The notes beneath the pieces are model-generated. The model made no database searches, was not told where the DNA came from, and saw only the letters and a program-made list of their open reading frames with translations. A stretch of DNA of 64,000 bases. Origin: Alphaproteobacteria bacterium (GTDB lineage: Bacteria > Pseudomonadota > Alphaproteobacteria > SP197). A program made the translations under genes and the position numbers. Each line of letters opens with the position of its first letter. Within the stretch, counting starts at the first letter, position 1. The stretch spans positions 224,001 to 288,000 of the forward strand of contig OZ219918.1 in NCBI GenBank assembly GCA_964291415.2, given 5' to 3'. Shown piece after piece: positions 12,098 to 63,989 of this stretch.

Positions 12098-12127
12098 TTG
12101 ACCGGACGCCAGTGCCGCATTCATAGT
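12098..12127 (+). promoter_or_regulatory. Candidate sigma70 promoter for the mini GIY-YIG/SIR2 operon
   Basis: TTGACC-N18-CATAGT, followed by AAGGAGG RBS before ATG 12150. Confidence 0.35.
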
Positions 12128-12149
12128 GCTGGGCCAAGGAGGACGCGTC

Positions 12150-12362
12150 ATGGTGGCCGAGACTACCTTCAGATACCGTTTCAAGGTGGGAGGCAGGGTC
12201 GTGCACTGCGGTTTCACGATCGACTTGGCGCGCCGCGAGCAAGAGCACCGCCGCCGGTGGCCGACGGGCCATATCGAACAGGTGGGTGGGCCGACCACGC
12301 GCGAAGAGGCGTGGAAGTGGGAGAGGCAGCAAGCCGAACAGCGGTTCCGTTCCGCGTCCTGA
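12150..12362 (+). CDS. 70-aa protein resembling a minimal GIY-YIG domain
   Basis: Strong RBS; FRY..VHCGFTIDLARREQEH..TREEAWKWE matches the GIY-YIG layout (beta hairpin, Arg helix, distal Glu) with YIG read as HCG; stop overlaps the next start (TGATG). Confidence 0.7.
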   Translation: MVAETTFRYRFKVGGRVVHCGFTIDLARREQEHRRRWPTGHIEQVGGPTTREEAWKWERQQAEQRFRSAS

Positions 12363-13456
12363 TGGCTTCACAGGAGCCCTCTGCGGGGCAGGCGGCCACA
12401 GCACAAAGCGTCCCCCGCAATCATGTTGTTGTCACCGGAGCCGGCTTCAGCCGCGCCTTGGTCCCCGGCGCGCCGCTGCTCGTTGACAATTTCAACAACG
12501 ATGCCCTTGAAAACAAAGTCCGAGGTCTGCCCAATGCGAGCCGGTTGCTGGAGTGGGAACGAAGCCTCCATCCGAGCGGTTACATCGATATTGAGCGTTT
12601 GATGACGCGACTCGATGCCTTGATGCCGTACGACTATGCCGAGAACGCTGGCAACGCAGCGAACGAATATGGATACCTCCTTTCGGAGCTGAAGAGAACG
12701 TTCGTTGACCGTCTCCATGAAGCTCGAAATGGGGACATCCATCGCGAAGACCTGAAACGCTTCGCGAACTTCTGTGAGACGCATCGCTGCTGCTGCATCA
12801 CGTTCAACTACGACGACTTCCTCGACGAGGCGCTGGCGCAGACCAAGAGTTGGAACCCTTACTGGGGTTACGGATTCTTCTGCCAGTCATCACTGGACAC
12901 CATGGCTAGTTTCGACGAACTGGAACGTAACTCGGCTTTGCGGCTGCTCAAGCTTCACGGATCGATCAATTGGCGGCCGAAGCTCGGCTATGCGAACCCG
13001 GTGGCAATCGACACCATCACGCATCATCACGAGTGGTCCAACAACAGTCTCCGGTATCCGCAAGTAGCCGGGAACCTCGAACCCGAACCGGTCATGGTCC
13101 CGCCTGTCCTGTCAAAGTCCAGCCTCGTCGAACAACCGGTCCTTCGGCTTGTCTGGTCGCATGCGCTTGCAAGCCTGGAGATAGCTCACGAAGTCACGTT
13201 CATTGGCTATTCGTTTCCGGCGACGGACGTGGCCGCAAGGACCTTGTTTACCGAAGCGTTGAAGGACCTGCCAGCAGAGGACATAAATGTTGTCAATCTA
13301 AGCCGCGACAAATCAGAGGCTGAAACCACGCGGGAGCGATATCGATCCGTGCTCGGCGATATCCCCGATGAGCAGTTTCATTTCAACGGCGCTCTGGAGT
13401 GGATAAGAGGCCTGCCGTCCAACCATCGGGGTAACGAATTGTTCAACCGGGGCTAG
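12362..13456 (+). CDS. SIR2-like domain protein (NADase-type sirtuin)
   Basis: VVVTGAGFS, ITFNYD, LLKLHGSINW, FIGYSFPATD motifs. Confidence 0.9.
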   Translation: MASQEPSAGQAATAQSVPRNHVVVTGAGFSRALVPGAPLLVDNFNNDALENKVRGLPNASRLLEWERSLHPSGYIDIERLMTRLDALMPYDYAENAGNAANEYGYLLSELKRTFVDRLHEARNGDIHREDLKRFANFCETHRCCCITFNYDDFLDEALAQTKSWNPYWGYGFFCQSSLDTMASFDELERNSALRLLKLHGSINWRPKLGYANPVAIDTITHHHEWSNNSLRYPQVAGNLEPEPVMVPPVLSKSSLVEQPVLRLVWSHALASLEIAHEVTFIGYSFPATDVAARTLFTEALKDLPAEDINVVNLSRDKSEAETTRERYRSVLGDIPDEQFHFNGALEWIRGLPSNHRGNELFNRG

Positions 13457-38478: not shown

Positions 38479-39186
38479 TCAACCCCCTTCTCCTGTTGGA
38501 TGAAGACTCTCCAACCGGTTGAGCCAGTCGGAAAAGTGAGGGCATTGCGTGCACATGCGCTGCAGGCCGATTTCCAGTGCGGCGAGAATACCCAGAAGTG
38601 GTTTCTCATATCCGTCAATCAGAGCCATGATCCGCTTCGACGGCGCTCCTTCCGGCGACTCATCGATCTCTTCCGGCGTCGGGAAGGTGTTCCTGATGTC
38701 CTGCAACCGCGGAGTCAGGTCCGGCCGCTCGATTCCAGTGCCGAACCTTTCGCAGTCGCTGAACAGCAGCGCCTCGTACTCGTGCATCATCACATACGGA
38801 ACGAATCGGCGCGTGTCGAAGCCGCCGCCCATTTCTCCGGCGATGTCTGCCAACAGGGCGTCCTGAATCGACGAGGCTCTGTCGGCAAAGGGACGCTGTG
38901 ACGCTTCCGCACGTCCCGGCCACGCTCCACCACCGCTCTGCGGAAGGCCGTAGTAATCCACCATCGTGGTGACGATGCGGTCCTGATCCTCGTGGAGATG
39001 GCGCACGATGTCCCGTCGCGCAGAGGGCCAGCCTCTGATGCCCCCTCGGTGGTCGCGCTGGCGCGCGTTTCCCATCAACCGCGCCCCGACCAACGAAAAG
39101 CCGCGGTCATAGAGGTGCGGCGCGAGAACCTCGTTGACGAAACTCTCTTCAGTCTGACCTTCGACGTGGACGAGGAGACGTGTCAT
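38479..39186 (-). CDS. DUF4276 family (TOPRIM-like) protein
   Basis: VEGQTEE, TTMVDYYGLP, HEYEALLFSD, PEEID..PSKRI, CPHFSDWL. Confidence 0.88.
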   Translation of the reverse strand: MTRLLVHVEGQTEESFVNEVLAPHLYDRGFSLVGARLMGNARQRDHRGGIRGWPSARRDIVRHLHEDQDRIVTTMVDYYGLPQSGGGAWPGRAEASQRPFADRASSIQDALLADIAGEMGGGFDTRRFVPYVMMHEYEALLFSDCERFGTGIERPDLTPRLQDIRNTFPTPEEIDESPEGAPSKRIMALIDGYEKPLLGILAALEIGLQRMCTQCPHFSDWLNRLESLHPTGEGG

Positions 39187-40220
39187 GCCTCGGGGGTGGG
39201 ACGCCCACCGAATTCATTCTTCTCCCAAAGTTGCCCGAGGCTGTACTCGTTCAGCCAGTCCCTCAGCCTCTCCGGTTCCAGCCTCGTCAGCTTGGTCGCC
39301 CCGTCCTCCCGATCAGCCACAAGCACGTCTTCCGGGTCGAAGTGATCGAGCAACAAGGGCGACTGTGTGGCGAGAATGACCTGAGTCTCTACGGATGCTT
39401 GTTTGACGAGCGATGCCAGAAGCGTGACTGCGTAGGGGTGCAAGCCGAGTTCCGGTTCGTCCATGAGGATGACGGACGGGCGGAGCGTCGCGGGCAGGAA
39501 CAGCAGCGTCGCGAGGGCGATGAATCTCAAGGTTCCGTCAGAAAGGGACGACGCGTCGAAATAGGCGTCCGACTTCCGATGCCGCCATTCAAGACGGATG
39601 GTGTCTTCATTCAACGCCAAGGGTTCCAGTTCAAAATCGTCGAAGAACGGTGCAGCGAGCCGCACCGTGCGTCGGATCATGCGGTACGCATCGGGGTGCT
39701 TTTGGCGCAGGCGATACAGAACGGCGGCGACGTTCGATCCATCCGCCTTCAGGTGGCGGTTGTCGTTCAGATCGGTCGTTTTCTTCATCGGAGACAACGG
39801 GCCGGTATCCTGAAAATGGTAGCAACGGAACTGACGGACTACGGCGAGTAGAGTCTTGGGAAAACTCCAGTTCTGGTCCCCCACAACAGGAAGCCTTCGT
39901 GCAACAAGCCTGTCGCCTGCAACTGCAATCAACTCTTGTCTGTACACCCTATGTATCTCATTGAATTTTATTTCGAAACTGATTCTCTCTGTGTTCTTGG
40001 CTCCAAAGTGCAGGATCTTGTCCGCTCCACCCGAGCGTACGACATGGTCGTCCACTTCACTGTCGTCACGAAGGGTGGTGCGCAACAGCGCCATGGCGCC
40101 GAAGACATTCGATTTGCCCGATCCGTTGGGTCCGATCAGCACGTTGATCCGGCCGAGACGCAATTCGAGACACCTGATGCTCTTGAAGCCTTCGATGGTG
40201 ATTCGGTCGAGCGCGGGCAT
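39183..40220 (-). CDS. AAA_21/ABC-type ATPase coupled to DUF4276
   Basis: GFKSI, GPNGSGKSN, YHF, LSDGTLR, DEPELGLHP, TQS; ATGA overlap with the downstream gene. Confidence 0.92.
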   Translation of the reverse strand: MPALDRITIEGFKSIRCLELRLGRINVLIGPNGSGKSNVFGAMALLRTTLRDDSEVDDHVVRSGGADKILHFGAKNTERISFEIKFNEIHRVYRQELIAVAGDRLVARRLPVVGDQNWSFPKTLLAVVRQFRCYHFQDTGPLSPMKKTTDLNDNRHLKADGSNVAAVLYRLRQKHPDAYRMIRRTVRLAAPFFDDFELEPLALNEDTIRLEWRHRKSDAYFDASSLSDGTLRFIALATLLFLPATLRPSVILMDEPELGLHPYAVTLLASLVKQASVETQVILATQSPLLLDHFDPEDVLVADREDGATKLTRLEPERLRDWLNEYSLGQLWEKNEFGGRPTPEA

Positions 40221-61188: not shown

Positions 61189-61626
61189 GATTGACCTCCC
61201 TTTGAATACGATTTGGATACAGACTGTAACCTTAACCCGGTCCGGGAGAAAGGCCAGTCGGGACAGTTTGACCTTTCAACGCGCAAGGCCCCGGGAACGA
61301 TGGTTTCGGCCGGGCTGGCCCTTGCGCCGAAGTCCGAGCCGGACAAGCCCCCTCGAAAGGGTCAGGCCGCCTTCGTTCTGGATTCTTTCGAGGTCGAGGA
61401 CGAATGGTTCGCGCTCGAGTTGGTCGCCTTCCAGGTGTTGTCCGGCGAAGGACCGCCTTCCGCGATCGCCGCGGAAGCAATCGAGACGATCAGGCGCTTG
61501 CGACTCAATGATGAGGAATGCTGTGGTGCGTGCGCCGAATACGCCGAGGATTACTGGCGCGAGGAAATCACAATCGCCGATGTGCGAAAAAATGGGGGAT
61601 TGTATACGCAACTTGACAGAATCGAC

Positions 61627-61655
61627 TTGACATCCAATGGTGTTATCGATATGAA
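61627..61655 (+). promoter_or_regulatory. Candidate sigma70 promoter of tnpB
   Basis: TTGACA-N17-TATGAA in the left end; GGAG RBS before ATG 61697. Confidence 0.45.
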
Positions 61656-61696
61656 TTCGTGTGGTAAATCAGTGCTCGCAATACCGGAGTCCCCGC

Positions 61697-62896
61697 ATGT
61701 CGTCCTCTGTCACCTATCGACAGATCACCTTTCGCCTGCTGCCCGAGAAGCGCAGCACCTGGCGGCGGCTGGAGGCCATGCTCGACACGCAGCGCTGTCT
61801 CTACAACGCGGCGCTGGAAGAACGGATCGACTGCTACCGCAAGACCGGCAAGTCGCTCACCTACTTCGATCAGGCGAAGTCCCTGACCCTTTGCCGCAAG
61901 GCGCTGCCGGACATGGCAGCGGTGCCGGTGGCCATTCAGCGCGGGACGCTCAAGCGCCTCGATCATGCCTTCAAGGGCTTCTTCCAGCGGGTGAAGCAGG
62001 GTGGGGCCGGGTTCCCCCGGTTCCAGGGACGCCGGCACTTCAACAGCCTTTCCGTGGTCTCCGGCGTCAGGGTCGAGGGCAGTCGCCTGCGCATCCCCGG
62101 CCTGGGCTGGCTGACCATCCGCCGCCGGGGCGGCAATCCCTGGCCGCAGGGCACGCCGGTGAGTGCGGTCCTCAAGCGCGAGGAGGGACGCTGGAAGGCT
62201 GTGGTGTGCCATGCGGTGTCGCTGCCGGAAGGGGACGACAACGGCCATGCCGTCGGCGTGGACATGAATGCGGGCCAGGTGGCGACCTCGGACGGGGAGA
62301 TCCTGCGCCTGGAGAGGAGCCGTCGTCTCGAGGCCCGTGCCCGGCGCTACGCCAAGCAGCTGGCGCGGCAGCGCCGTGGCAGCAGGCGGCGGGAGAAGAC
62401 GCGGCGGCGTCTGGCGAAGACCACCCGGCACATGGCCATGAAGCGCCATGACTGGCAGCACCACGTCAGCCGCCGGTTGGCGGATGCGGCGGGAACGGTG
62501 GTGGTCGAGGATCTCAAGGTCCGCACCATGACCCGCAGCGCCAGGGGCACGAAGGAGGAGCCGGGACGTCACGTGCGCTCCAAGGCGGGTCTCAACCGTG
62601 TCATCCTGGAGACGGGCTGGTCGTCGTTCCGGAGAATGCTGGACTACAAGGTTCACCGCGTCATCGCGGTGAACCCGGCCTACAGCAGCCAGACCTGTGC
62701 AGCGTGCGGCGTCACGAGCGCCCAATCACGCAGGACGCGGGACCTGTTTCAATGCGTGGCGTGCGGCCATGCGGATCACGCCGACCTCAATGCAGCGGCG
62801 AACATTCTGGCCTCGGGGACTGAGGCATCTGCGCGGGGAGGTTGCCGGGTTGCCGGGCCTGTGAACCGCGAAATCGATCAGAGGATGGCAGCATGA
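61697..62896 (+). CDS. tnpB: RNA-guided endonuclease TnpB (399 aa)
   Basis: FRLLP..RCLYNAAL N-terminus, GFPRF, RuvC D (GVDMN), E (VEDL), D (HADLNAAANI), zinc finger CAAC..CVAC. Confidence 0.95.
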   Translation: MSSSVTYRQITFRLLPEKRSTWRRLEAMLDTQRCLYNAALEERIDCYRKTGKSLTYFDQAKSLTLCRKALPDMAAVPVAIQRGTLKRLDHAFKGFFQRVKQGGAGFPRFQGRRHFNSLSVVSGVRVEGSRLRIPGLGWLTIRRRGGNPWPQGTPVSAVLKREEGRWKAVVCHAVSLPEGDDNGHAVGVDMNAGQVATSDGEILRLERSRRLEARARRYAKQLARQRRGSRRREKTRRRLAKTTRHMAMKRHDWQHHVSRRLADAAGTVVVEDLKVRTMTRSARGTKEEPGRHVRSKAGLNRVILETGWSSFRRMLDYKVHRVIAVNPAYSSQTCAACGVTSAQSRRTRDLFQCVACGHADHADLNAAANILASGTEASARGGCRVAGPVNREIDQRMAA

Positions 62897-62943
62897 CGCT
62901 GTCAACTTCTCGATATAAGTCCCAAAAAATGCTCCTTCGTTGC
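62790..62943 (+). ncRNA. Putative omegaRNA (reRNA) scaffold overlapping the tnpB 3' end, plus flanking guide
   Basis: Only 27 nt between stop and right end; hairpin GCCTCGG-GGA-CTGAGGC (62810-62826) and CGCGG/CCGCG pairing (62832-62870); boundaries inferred from TnpB biology. Confidence 0.5.
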
Positions 62944-63149
62944 GAGGAAACCGGACGTTCCAGGACGGCCCTAAGCCTCTTGATCACTGGCGATTTCCCT
63001 AGGCGTTTTGTCACAAACGCGAAGTGAGGATAGAGAACAGATGTCCGCTTTCTTGAAACACTCTCGGAAGAAATAGCTGCCGTCCGCATCGAAAGCTTCG
63101 GTGAGCGATCCGGGTTGGAGGCCACAACTCAAGCCGCGTGTCAGCGGTG

Positions 63150-63989
63150 TCAGCGGAACATCAAGGAGCCGCTGCGTTGTTCGATGGCGTCGGAGACGAC
63201 GATGCCACCGCGAAAACGGTCATATGTAGTATCCAGATAGTGGTACTGGAGCGCTTTCAACTGGCCGCCATAGCGCTGCCGAAGGCCTCCTGCGGCGGGC
63301 TGTACGTGAACATTGCTCACGTGGCCTGTGCAGTAGGCGTGGCAGGCAACGGGATAGAGCAGCGCGGAGCACAGGATATCGCAGACTTGGAGGCCGGCGT
63401 GGTTGTCGCTGTGGCCGAAGGTTGGAAGTTCGACGGTCCGAGGGTACGCCCGGGCAGTTTGGCTGAACTTCTGGGTGAAGATCGAGTGGGACACCTTGAC
63501 GTTCTTGAACTTGTTGCGGCTGTCGGCGATGCATGCGCCGACCTCGTTCACGTGGGACAGATAGTGGTCGAAGTAGGTGCAGATGCCTTGGATCGAAGCC
63601 GTGTAAACGGACGTGGGAACGAAGGGCATTCCGATGCCCTTCACGCTGATGCGCGCGACCAACCGAACGTCGTGGCGCCACAGCATTCCGAAAATGCGGT
63701 CCAGGAATCCGACTGCGTGACGTCGCTGACGAGCGTTGCCGCGTAACGCGTTGTTCCGGATATCCGCCCCCTTGATCTCCGGCAGGATCCTGTCAAGGAA
63801 TCTGGCCGATGGGTACGGCAAGTTGGGGAAGTACCGATACTTCAGGTCGAGGAAATCAGCGGTAAAGGCGAGGAGGTTTGCGGCTTCCGCGAAGAGTCCA
63901 CCGACGACCAGGACGGGTTGGTCGTTAGGCTGCGGCGGGTCGGACAGCGGTCCGAGGTCTCCCGCTTCGTCGATAAAGCAGATTCTCAT
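63150..63989 (-). CDS. DUF3800 domain-containing protein
   Basis: FIDEAGD N-terminus, EIKG, and GLQVCDIL (QxxD) motif. Confidence 0.85.
   Translation of the reverse strand: MRICFIDEAGDLGPLSDPPQPNDQPVLVVGGLFAEAANLLAFTADFLDLKYRYFPNLPYPSARFLDRILPEIKGADIRNNALRGNARQRRHAVGFLDRIFGMLWRHDVRLVARISVKGIGMPFVPTSVYTASIQGICTYFDHYLSHVNEVGACIADSRNKFKNVKVSHSIFTQKFSQTARAYPRTVELPTFGHSDNHAGLQVCDILCSALLYPVACHAYCTGHVSNVHVQPAAGGLRQRYGGQLKALQYHYLDTTYDRFRGGIVVSDAIEQRSGSLMFR

Follow-up and report, generated by a model that had tools for sequence, protein, structure and literature searches.

A tnpB gene within a probable non-autonomous, inverted-repeat and target-duplicating transposon of a large, mainly alphaproteobacterial clade

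The stretch of 64,000 nucleotides analysed here (Alphaproteobacteria bacterium, assembly GCA_964291415.2, contig OZ219918.1, positions 224,001 to 288,000 of the forward strand), the whole of which is referred to as the window, contains a tnpB gene enclosed between imperfect inverted repeats and an exact duplication of 8 bp. The 1329-bp unit so delimited (61595-62923) is, in our opinion, probably a non-autonomous transposon of a cut or copy type that duplicates its target, carries tnpB along with the gene for an omega RNA, and is moved in trans, probably by a transposase of the DDE type. The duplication, AAAAAATG, borders the unit on both sides (Table 1), and the left end, read from 61595, agrees with the reverse complement of the right end, read from 62923, at 17 of 25 and at 26 of 41 ungapped positions. 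Among 200,000 random pairs of segments from the window, a match of at least 17/25 occurred at a frequency of 1e-5, and a match of at least 26/41 never occurred. The pattern common to both ends is found in the window at these two places only, with 0 matches expected (100 shuffles). The unit with its exact duplication, the imperfect repeats and the pattern common to the two ends had all been described in a first-pass annotation of this DNA, and the description holds on each of these points. Subterminal hairpins of the IS605 type are absent from the left end, which, when folded as DNA, forms no stable hairpin and is less structured than its shuffles (z +1.56); a hairpin is present at the right end only.

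The gene itself, the sole credible one in the unit, encodes a TnpB protein of 399 amino acids (aa) that matches the Pfam families OrfB_IS605 (PF01385) and Cas12f1-like_TNB (PF07282) and aligns over its full length with the structures of ISDra2 TnpB (PDB 8h1j, E 4.2e-32; PDB 8bf8, E 5.4e-32), at 32-35% identity as counted by eye. Residues D189, E271 and D363 align with the catalytic positions of ISDra2 TnpB, and a C4 zinc finger of the CxxC...CxxC type (C334, C337, C353, C356) is located between RuvC-II and RuvC-III. In an alignment of 40 sequences (39 homologues), D189 and C337 are invariant, and conservation reaches 90% or more at E271, D363, C334, C353 and C356. An intact tnpB, with a D-E-D RuvC domain and a zinc finger, as the only gene of the unit had also been annotated at first pass, in agreement with the Pfam matches, the ISDra2 alignment and the conserved columns.

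The unit interrupts a host open reading frame (ORF) for which 13 homologues of 120-155 aa were identified. One of them represents an empty allele at the protein level: in P0123, the closest homologue, which is uninterrupted, the left and the right flanks are contiguous, joined at residue 97, and therefore the element is absent there, so that P0123 amounts, as judged from its predicted protein, to an empty site. The earlier proposal that removal of the unit restores a reading frame is borne out in part. With the unit and one copy of the repeat removed, the left ORF does stay open for 23 more codons, but the frame in which P0123 runs on through the right flank is shifted by one base relative to that of the left ORF in the window. 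The host ORF belongs to a small family with no Pfam match and with a conserved LRLNDEECC stretch; the copy in the window and P0123 lack an N-terminal block that is common to the other homologues, with different C-terminal frames.

Relatives of the unit were collected through one profile search of a genome collection, in which an alignment of 40 TnpB homologues retrieved 598 stretches, 560 of them coding for relatives. The best 80 of the 598 were analysed as loci, of which approximately 43 are alphaproteobacterial (48-93% identity) and the others are distant (34-45%). Together with the 64-kb window these loci make up 1.48 Mb of fetched DNA, a tiny fraction of the host genomes, all of which was scanned with a 14-nt position weight matrix (PWM) for the ends, consensus GGGAATTATATACA, combined with a test for 8-bp flanking repeats. 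In the protein collection, one record (P0001) is 97% identical to the window TnpB over the full length, and dozens of relatives are present at 50-90%. A gene-anchored alignment of the flanks demonstrated that the alphaproteobacterial clade has the termini of the window element on both sides, 5'-GGG(A/G/C)(A/C)TTA(T/C)AT...-3', inverted at the opposite end, and the scan returned 21 inverted-repeat pairs with an 8-bp flanking repeat, 16 exact and 5 with one mismatch, each with a different 8-mer and each enclosing a tnpB homologue. Because homologues keep the exact boundaries next to different 8-mers, the similarity of the ends is that of genuine terminal inverted repeats (TIRs), and the flanking 8 bp are a genuine target-site duplication (TSD). 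The check proposed along with the first-pass annotation, for copies with the same boundaries and different duplications, has thus come out in its favor, and so has its view of the element as non-autonomous and of an architecture other than that of IS200/IS605 or IS607, as inverted repeats and target duplications are present throughout the family. Most of the bounded units (18 of 21) are 1303-1393 bp long, with space for tnpB alone, and no recognisable transposase gene was seen inside any of the 21; the three longer ones hold either intron-type reverse transcriptases (loci L033 and L045) or two ORFs of unknown family (L047). When the clade loci in which both ends score are considered, 23 in number, the duplication is exact in 13, off by one in 3 and off by two in 1, and the flanks are unrelated in 6. 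The inverted repeats may be near-perfect, as in L022 and L017 (24/25, counted by eye).

The clade is large, recently mobile, and mainly one of marine-type Alphaproteobacteria. In a quick maximum-likelihood tree of 68 proteins its 33 alphaproteobacterial rows form one clade, with a value of 100 in the Shimodaira-Hasegawa-like approximate likelihood-ratio test (SH-aLRT). The identical end type is also found around far more divergent TnpBs, one from Steroidobacteraceae (L042, 41% identity) and one from Dehalococcoidia (L047, 37%). A second inverted-repeat clade is represented by loci from Acidimicrobiia (L041, L051, L053, L054, L056, L062, L069, L073 and L077), whose ends differ, starting with GGTAGTGG and matching one another at 16-21 of 24 positions; exact 8-bp duplications are present in 3 of the 9 pairs, and the right end contains a covarying hairpin. 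As this clade has different ends and the same duplication length, the 8-bp duplication is more widespread than a single end type. Rows linked to the Y1 transposase TnpA fall between the Acidimicrobiia clade and the rows of L042 and L047 in a tree that, being quick, unrooted and affected by several long branches, gives no order of events. As to plasmids, a DNA search with the whole unit returned just 4 weak partial matches, and a protein search with the window TnpB returned 2182 records, every one of them below 60% identity; with a TnpB of the Acidimicrobiia clade, the top matches listed are 43-49% identical. No member of either inverted-repeat clade is found among the five plasmid loci examined, three of which are relatives of the window TnpB without these ends, one of them with a Y1 TnpA, while one relative of the Acidimicrobiia-clade TnpB is an IS605-type element with TnpA.

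In L019 (approximately 1240-2620), L027 and L031, from three assemblies, the right inverted repeat is broken at the same point by sequence of one kind, which in L027 and L031 lies a little inward of the right end of the element. The ORF of the L019 insert is an IS110-family transposase (Pfam PF02371, PF01548) with a homologous ORF in L031, and this looks like an IS110-type element targeting the right inverted repeat of tnpB units. Reverse-transcriptase ORFs are found in or beside tnpB elements in L033 (7935-9850), L045 (10642-11952) and L022 (5380-6717). They are taken for group II introns, with an RVT_1 domain in L033 and RVT_1 plus an intron maturase domain in L045; the L033 insert lies 21 nt in from the left end, in a unit of 3289 bp whose 8-bp duplication is still exact. 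In L047 (8151-11178), the left end is present a second time, at a distance of 1764 bp upstream of the tnpB element, and together with the right end it delimits a unit of 3028 bp with a 7/8 flanking repeat and two ORFs of unknown family. This unit may be a remnant or else a form that carries cargo.

Conservation in the clade extends to a structured RNA at the 3' end of the unit. For the last 220 bases of 23 elements, RNAalifold predicts 20 base pairs, 7 of them with compensatory changes; at the consensus pairs 95.3% of the cells are paired, versus 29-38% after displacement of the partners by 1-3 columns, and the covariation score was reached by none of 500 shuffles. The covarying helices fall within 62763-62870, and the hairpin at 62845-48/62853-56 displays compensatory changes in all four of its pairs. 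Folding of the single sequence indicates in addition a terminal hairpin around the tnpB stop codon that extends into the right repeat. An Rfam scan for this RNA gave 0 matches. Both its position and its appearance are as expected for a TnpB omega RNA, here predicted from sequence only, and, by analogy with such RNAs, the guide part would be read from the right boundary onward, that is from the duplication copy and the flank beyond it.

The target sites add further information. Oriented by tnpB, the duplicated 8-mers of the 21 bounded elements show an A/T-rich, mirror-symmetric preference, with position 1 never being G, position 8 being C once, and positions 2 and 7 being A or T in 21/21 and 20/21 cases, respectively. 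The base immediately before the left duplication is G in all 21 of these elements, the mirror base being C in 7 of 21. Over the distinct left flanks of the clade, those of elements with a non-matching right flank among them, G occupies this position in 30 of 30, versus C as the mirror base after the right duplication in 9 of 31; in the Acidimicrobiia clade, G precedes the left duplication in 7 of 9. On the likeliest explanation, the invariant G would be part of the target-adjacent motif (TAM) of TnpB, since it occupies the position expected for this motif should the guide start with the right copy of the duplication. In the occupied site, the terminus of the element itself (...TCCC) would place a C at that position. 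It was also considered whether copies of the same lineage have the initial bases of their duplications in common, and this idea was abandoned: near-identical copies from the same genome do share the first four in two cases (L012/L013, TATG...; L011/L014, AAAG...), but L008, L039 and L040 do not, and the sharing is possibly due to chance, given the A/T-rich preference.

Table 1. Features of the tnpB element and of its insertion site, in positions of the window.
Feature	Position	Strand	Remarks
Host ORF, 5' part	61300..61594	+	95/97 identical to P0123 residues 1-97
G directly 5' of the left duplication, candidate last base of the TAM	61586..61586	+	G in 30/30 clade left flanks
Left TSD copy, AAAAAATG	61587..61594	.	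Other 8-mers at this place in family members
Left TIR	61595..61635, best kept 61595-61619	+	17/25, 26/41; terminus clade-wide, 14-nt consensus GGGAATTATATACA
Non-coding leader, left end to tnpB start	61636..61696	+	Kept in the closest relatives, L001-L003
tnpB, 399 aa, RuvC D189-E271-D363 and zinc finger intact	61697 (ATG)..62896 (stop)	+	Pfam, structure alignment
Conserved structured RNA (omega-RNA-like scaffold)	62763..62923	+	Overlaps the tnpB 3' end and reaches the right end
RNA helices	62763-65/62791-93, 62772-74/62781-83, 62810-14/62822-26, 62832-36/62866-70, 62845-48/62853-56	+	RNAalifold
Right TIR	62899..62923, imperfect match to 62883	-	Kept across the clade
Right TSD copy, AAAAAATG	62924..62931	.	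Identical to the left copy
Predicted guide template of the omega RNA (duplication copy and flank)	62924..62943	+	Proposed by analogy
Host ORF, 3' part, as read in the uninterrupted relative	62926..63027	+	31/33 identical to P0123 residues 97-129

A mechanism can be proposed as follows. Encoding no transposase, the unit would depend for its movement on an enzyme supplied in trans that cleaves DNA with an 8-bp stagger. TnpB, in complex with an omega RNA whose guide derives from the right duplication copy and the flank, would then cut the empty site, and such cutting would favor retention or spread of the element, a homing role. The invariant G would serve as part of the TAM, and the C contributed by the right end would protect the occupied site from the nuclease.

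Among the kinds of enzyme that could mobilise the unit, a transposase of the DDE type is the likeliest, and an enzyme of the IS1595 family is, tentatively, the leading candidate. This family is reportedly known for passenger genes, and the clade consensus, GGGAATTATAT..., fits the end pattern quoted for its ISNwi group in the first-pass annotation. The assignment of the element to an IS1595-like lineage at first pass stands insofar as the 8-bp duplication and the GG...CC termini fit the available text on this family, members of which are usually flanked by 8-bp duplications, with GG termini given for Merlin (PMC8101967), but it goes further than the data in that no transposase element with these ends was found in the 1.48 Mb, so that this family remains a candidate only. 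Neither the 8-bp duplication nor the GG...CC termini are exclusive to IS1595.

A number of observations weigh against a transposon of the proposed kind, moved in trans by a DDE enzyme. No transposase element sharing the ends was detected in the fetched DNA, and the PWM produced no convincing matches to orphan ends away from tnpB copies. A zinc-ribbon filter for IS1595-like DDE ORFs left 8 candidates, none of them plausible, and no IS1595- or ISL3-type domain is found in 98 ORFs next to the distant relatives or in 21 repeated ORFs (1 IS5-type transposase, 16 metabolic, transport, regulatory or repeat proteins and 4 of no family). The transposases that are present, of the IS5, IS4, IS110 and Y1 types, all have other ends, and a Y1 TnpA is found beside tnpB in 8 of 36 distant loci, the outgroups, and in plasmid relatives as well. 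In the leader, a consensus scan found 0 sites for a sigma-70-type promoter. Six of the 23 elements (L007, L017, L018, L020, L022 and L027) have no matching flanks, which suggests rearrangement or recombination between copies, unrelated flanks being expected if copies recombined with one another. Finally, an orientation-specific base next to the duplication is not what would be expected from a symmetric DDE complex.

Further searches gave negative results of their own. A scan for promoters and terminators returned 0 sites, and no transposase other than tnpB is seen among the 61 window ORFs scanned. Resolvase domains are absent from the 98 neighboring, the 21 repeated and the window ORFs, and a Y1 TnpA was met with in distant relatives only, the clade's own flanking genes not having been scanned singly for either. 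In a Shewanella megaplasmid, looked at blindly over its first 50 kb, there is no IS1595 copy, and a search for longer, fused TnpB proteins gave 2 unrelated matches and no DDE fusion. Several candidate partners were examined and set aside. The second end copy in L047, at 18516, belongs to a further copy of tnpB that is disrupted by an IS5-type element whose ends are its own; the 3.3-kb unit of L033 is a tnpB element containing the reverse-transcriptase ORF that is taken for a group II intron; an IS4-type element is present in L029 and an intron in L045; and the ends of the IS5-type element beside L007 are of another kind.

Three other explanations need to be weighed. The partner may be a transposase of a family other than IS1595 that also makes duplications of approximately 8 bp, which would leave its nature as a non-autonomous transposon with inverted repeats unchanged. 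We consider this somewhat unlikely, while acknowledging that IS1595 is tied to the element by just two generic features, the duplication length and the GG...CC termini, that no IS1595-type gene was seen in the 1.48 Mb, and that the Acidimicrobiia clade combines different inverted ends with a duplication that is likewise of 8 bp (3 of the 9 pairs are exact). Against it, the other candidate families also yielded no gene with these ends, the IS5-type elements that are present have their own, different ends, and the target duplications of ISL2, IS630 and IS1031 are much shorter than 8 bp. It is extremely improbable, on the other hand, that the unit is an ordinary tnpB-only element of the IS200/IS605 type (IS1341-like), served in trans by a Y1 TnpA, with its repeats being incidental. 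The outgroups with a Y1 TnpA beside tnpB, at 34-40% identity, the plasmid relatives and the hairpin near the right end would all be in line with such an origin, but exact and differing 8-bp duplications, in 16 elements, and family-wide inverted ends are not products of single-strand Y1 transposition, according to the available text of a 2026 review (PMC13565253), the left end has no hairpin, and the 21 bounded units, 18 of them with space for tnpB only, contain no recognisable transposase gene.

A third explanation is that TnpB itself shapes integration or target choice, for example if the nuclease and its TAM determined the staggered break or the orientation of insertion, whether or not a separate transposase takes part. 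The orientation-specific G at the TAM position (30/30, versus 9/31 for the mirror C, and 7/9 in the second clade) and the fact that no partner transposase was found in the 1.48 Mb speak for a contribution of this kind. It is nevertheless very unlikely, as the guide, being read from the flank where the element already sits, cannot direct it to new ones, the presence of inverted repeats implies a transposase that binds them, the base preference within the duplication has the mirror symmetry of a dimeric transposase, and no precedent was found in the literature examined. A related and broader idea, which we regard as doubtful, is that the clade and its Acidimicrobiia sister clade have left single-strand transposition of the IS605 type for a life cycle based on inverted repeats and 8-bp duplications, in which the TAM of the nuclease is coupled to integration. 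If this were true, every surviving insertion would be in one orientation beside a G, and the nuclease, and not the transposase alone, would set site and orientation; in the extreme form of this life cycle, the nuclease would help make the integration break. A non-autonomous transposon moved by a separate enzyme, with TnpB acting on the empty site, remains the reading that we prefer.

The first-pass annotation had put forward the capture of TnpB by a DDE transposon lineage as a possible novelty. This was overstated, as six DDE-associated branches of TnpB (DDE-1 to DDE-6), all with inverted terminal repeats, have been reported, along with solo TnpBs that have the ends of transposase-bearing copies and were taken as mobilised in trans (Altae-Tran et al., 2023, PNAS; PMC10691335, available text). 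IS630, for DDE-6, is the only DDE family named in that text, while the available text of the 2026 review lists ISL2, IS630 and IS1031 and describes such associations as rare in prokaryotes (PMC13565253). The window element is similar to the published branches in having tnpB within inverted terminal repeats, with the 3' end of the gene near the end of the element, and in having solo copies that would move in trans, and the present clade may be among DDE-1 to DDE-6; an 8-bp duplication and ends such as these are not mentioned for the branches in the text available, and neither IS1595 nor an 8-bp duplication is mentioned in the available portions of the two papers (PMC10691335; PMC13565253). A literature search found no link of TnpB with IS1595, most of the matching papers having been judged without their full text.

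Comparisons can be made with other known systems. With IS1595 (ISNwi group) and Merlin the element shares the 8-bp duplication and the GG...CC termini, the latter stated for Merlin in the available text (PMC8101967), and it differs in that no DDE_Tnp_IS1595 gene is present in the unit or in the fetched DNA. With the tnpB-only elements of IS200/IS605 (IS1341 group) it shares the nuclease family and an omega-RNA-like structure at the 3' end, but it has inverted repeats and an 8-bp duplication and no hairpin at the left end, whereas IS200/IS605 and IS607 elements are described, in the available text, as having neither inverted repeats nor target duplications (PMC13565253). Likewise, eukaryotic cut-and-paste transposons with Fanzor have an RNA-guided nuclease of the TnpB type within elements with inverted repeats and target duplications, and their duplication is next to or within the recognised motif, as far as the available texts describe it (PMC13565253; PMC10711439). 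Unlike these, the window element is bacterial, its TnpB is of standard size, and its transposase would be outside the element. Overall, and as far as we have seen, the presence of TnpB in inverted-repeat DDE transposons is published in general, and apparently not for this type.

Elsewhere in the window, defence-like genes are found at 12098-13456 (an ORF with a SIR2_2 domain), at 38479-40220 (a DUF4276 gene paired with an AAA_21 ATPase) and at 63150-63989 (a DUF3800 ORF), the last of these directly to the right of the insertion.

TnpB, from which Cas12 descends, is in use as a genome editor, and its accepted role, that of restoring the element after scarless excision, has been worked out for IS605 and IS607. 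How this role fits transposons that leave a break and duplicate their target is an open point, according to the available text of the recent review (PMC13565253). The clade described here is abundant and recently mobile, it carries one gene in approximately 1.3 kb between clear boundaries, and an empty allele is at hand, making this question directly testable. The base preceding the left duplication is a candidate for a one-base discriminator between empty and occupied sites, and the clade as a whole points to a transposase, possibly of the IS1595 type, that would mobilise tnpB cargo in trans.

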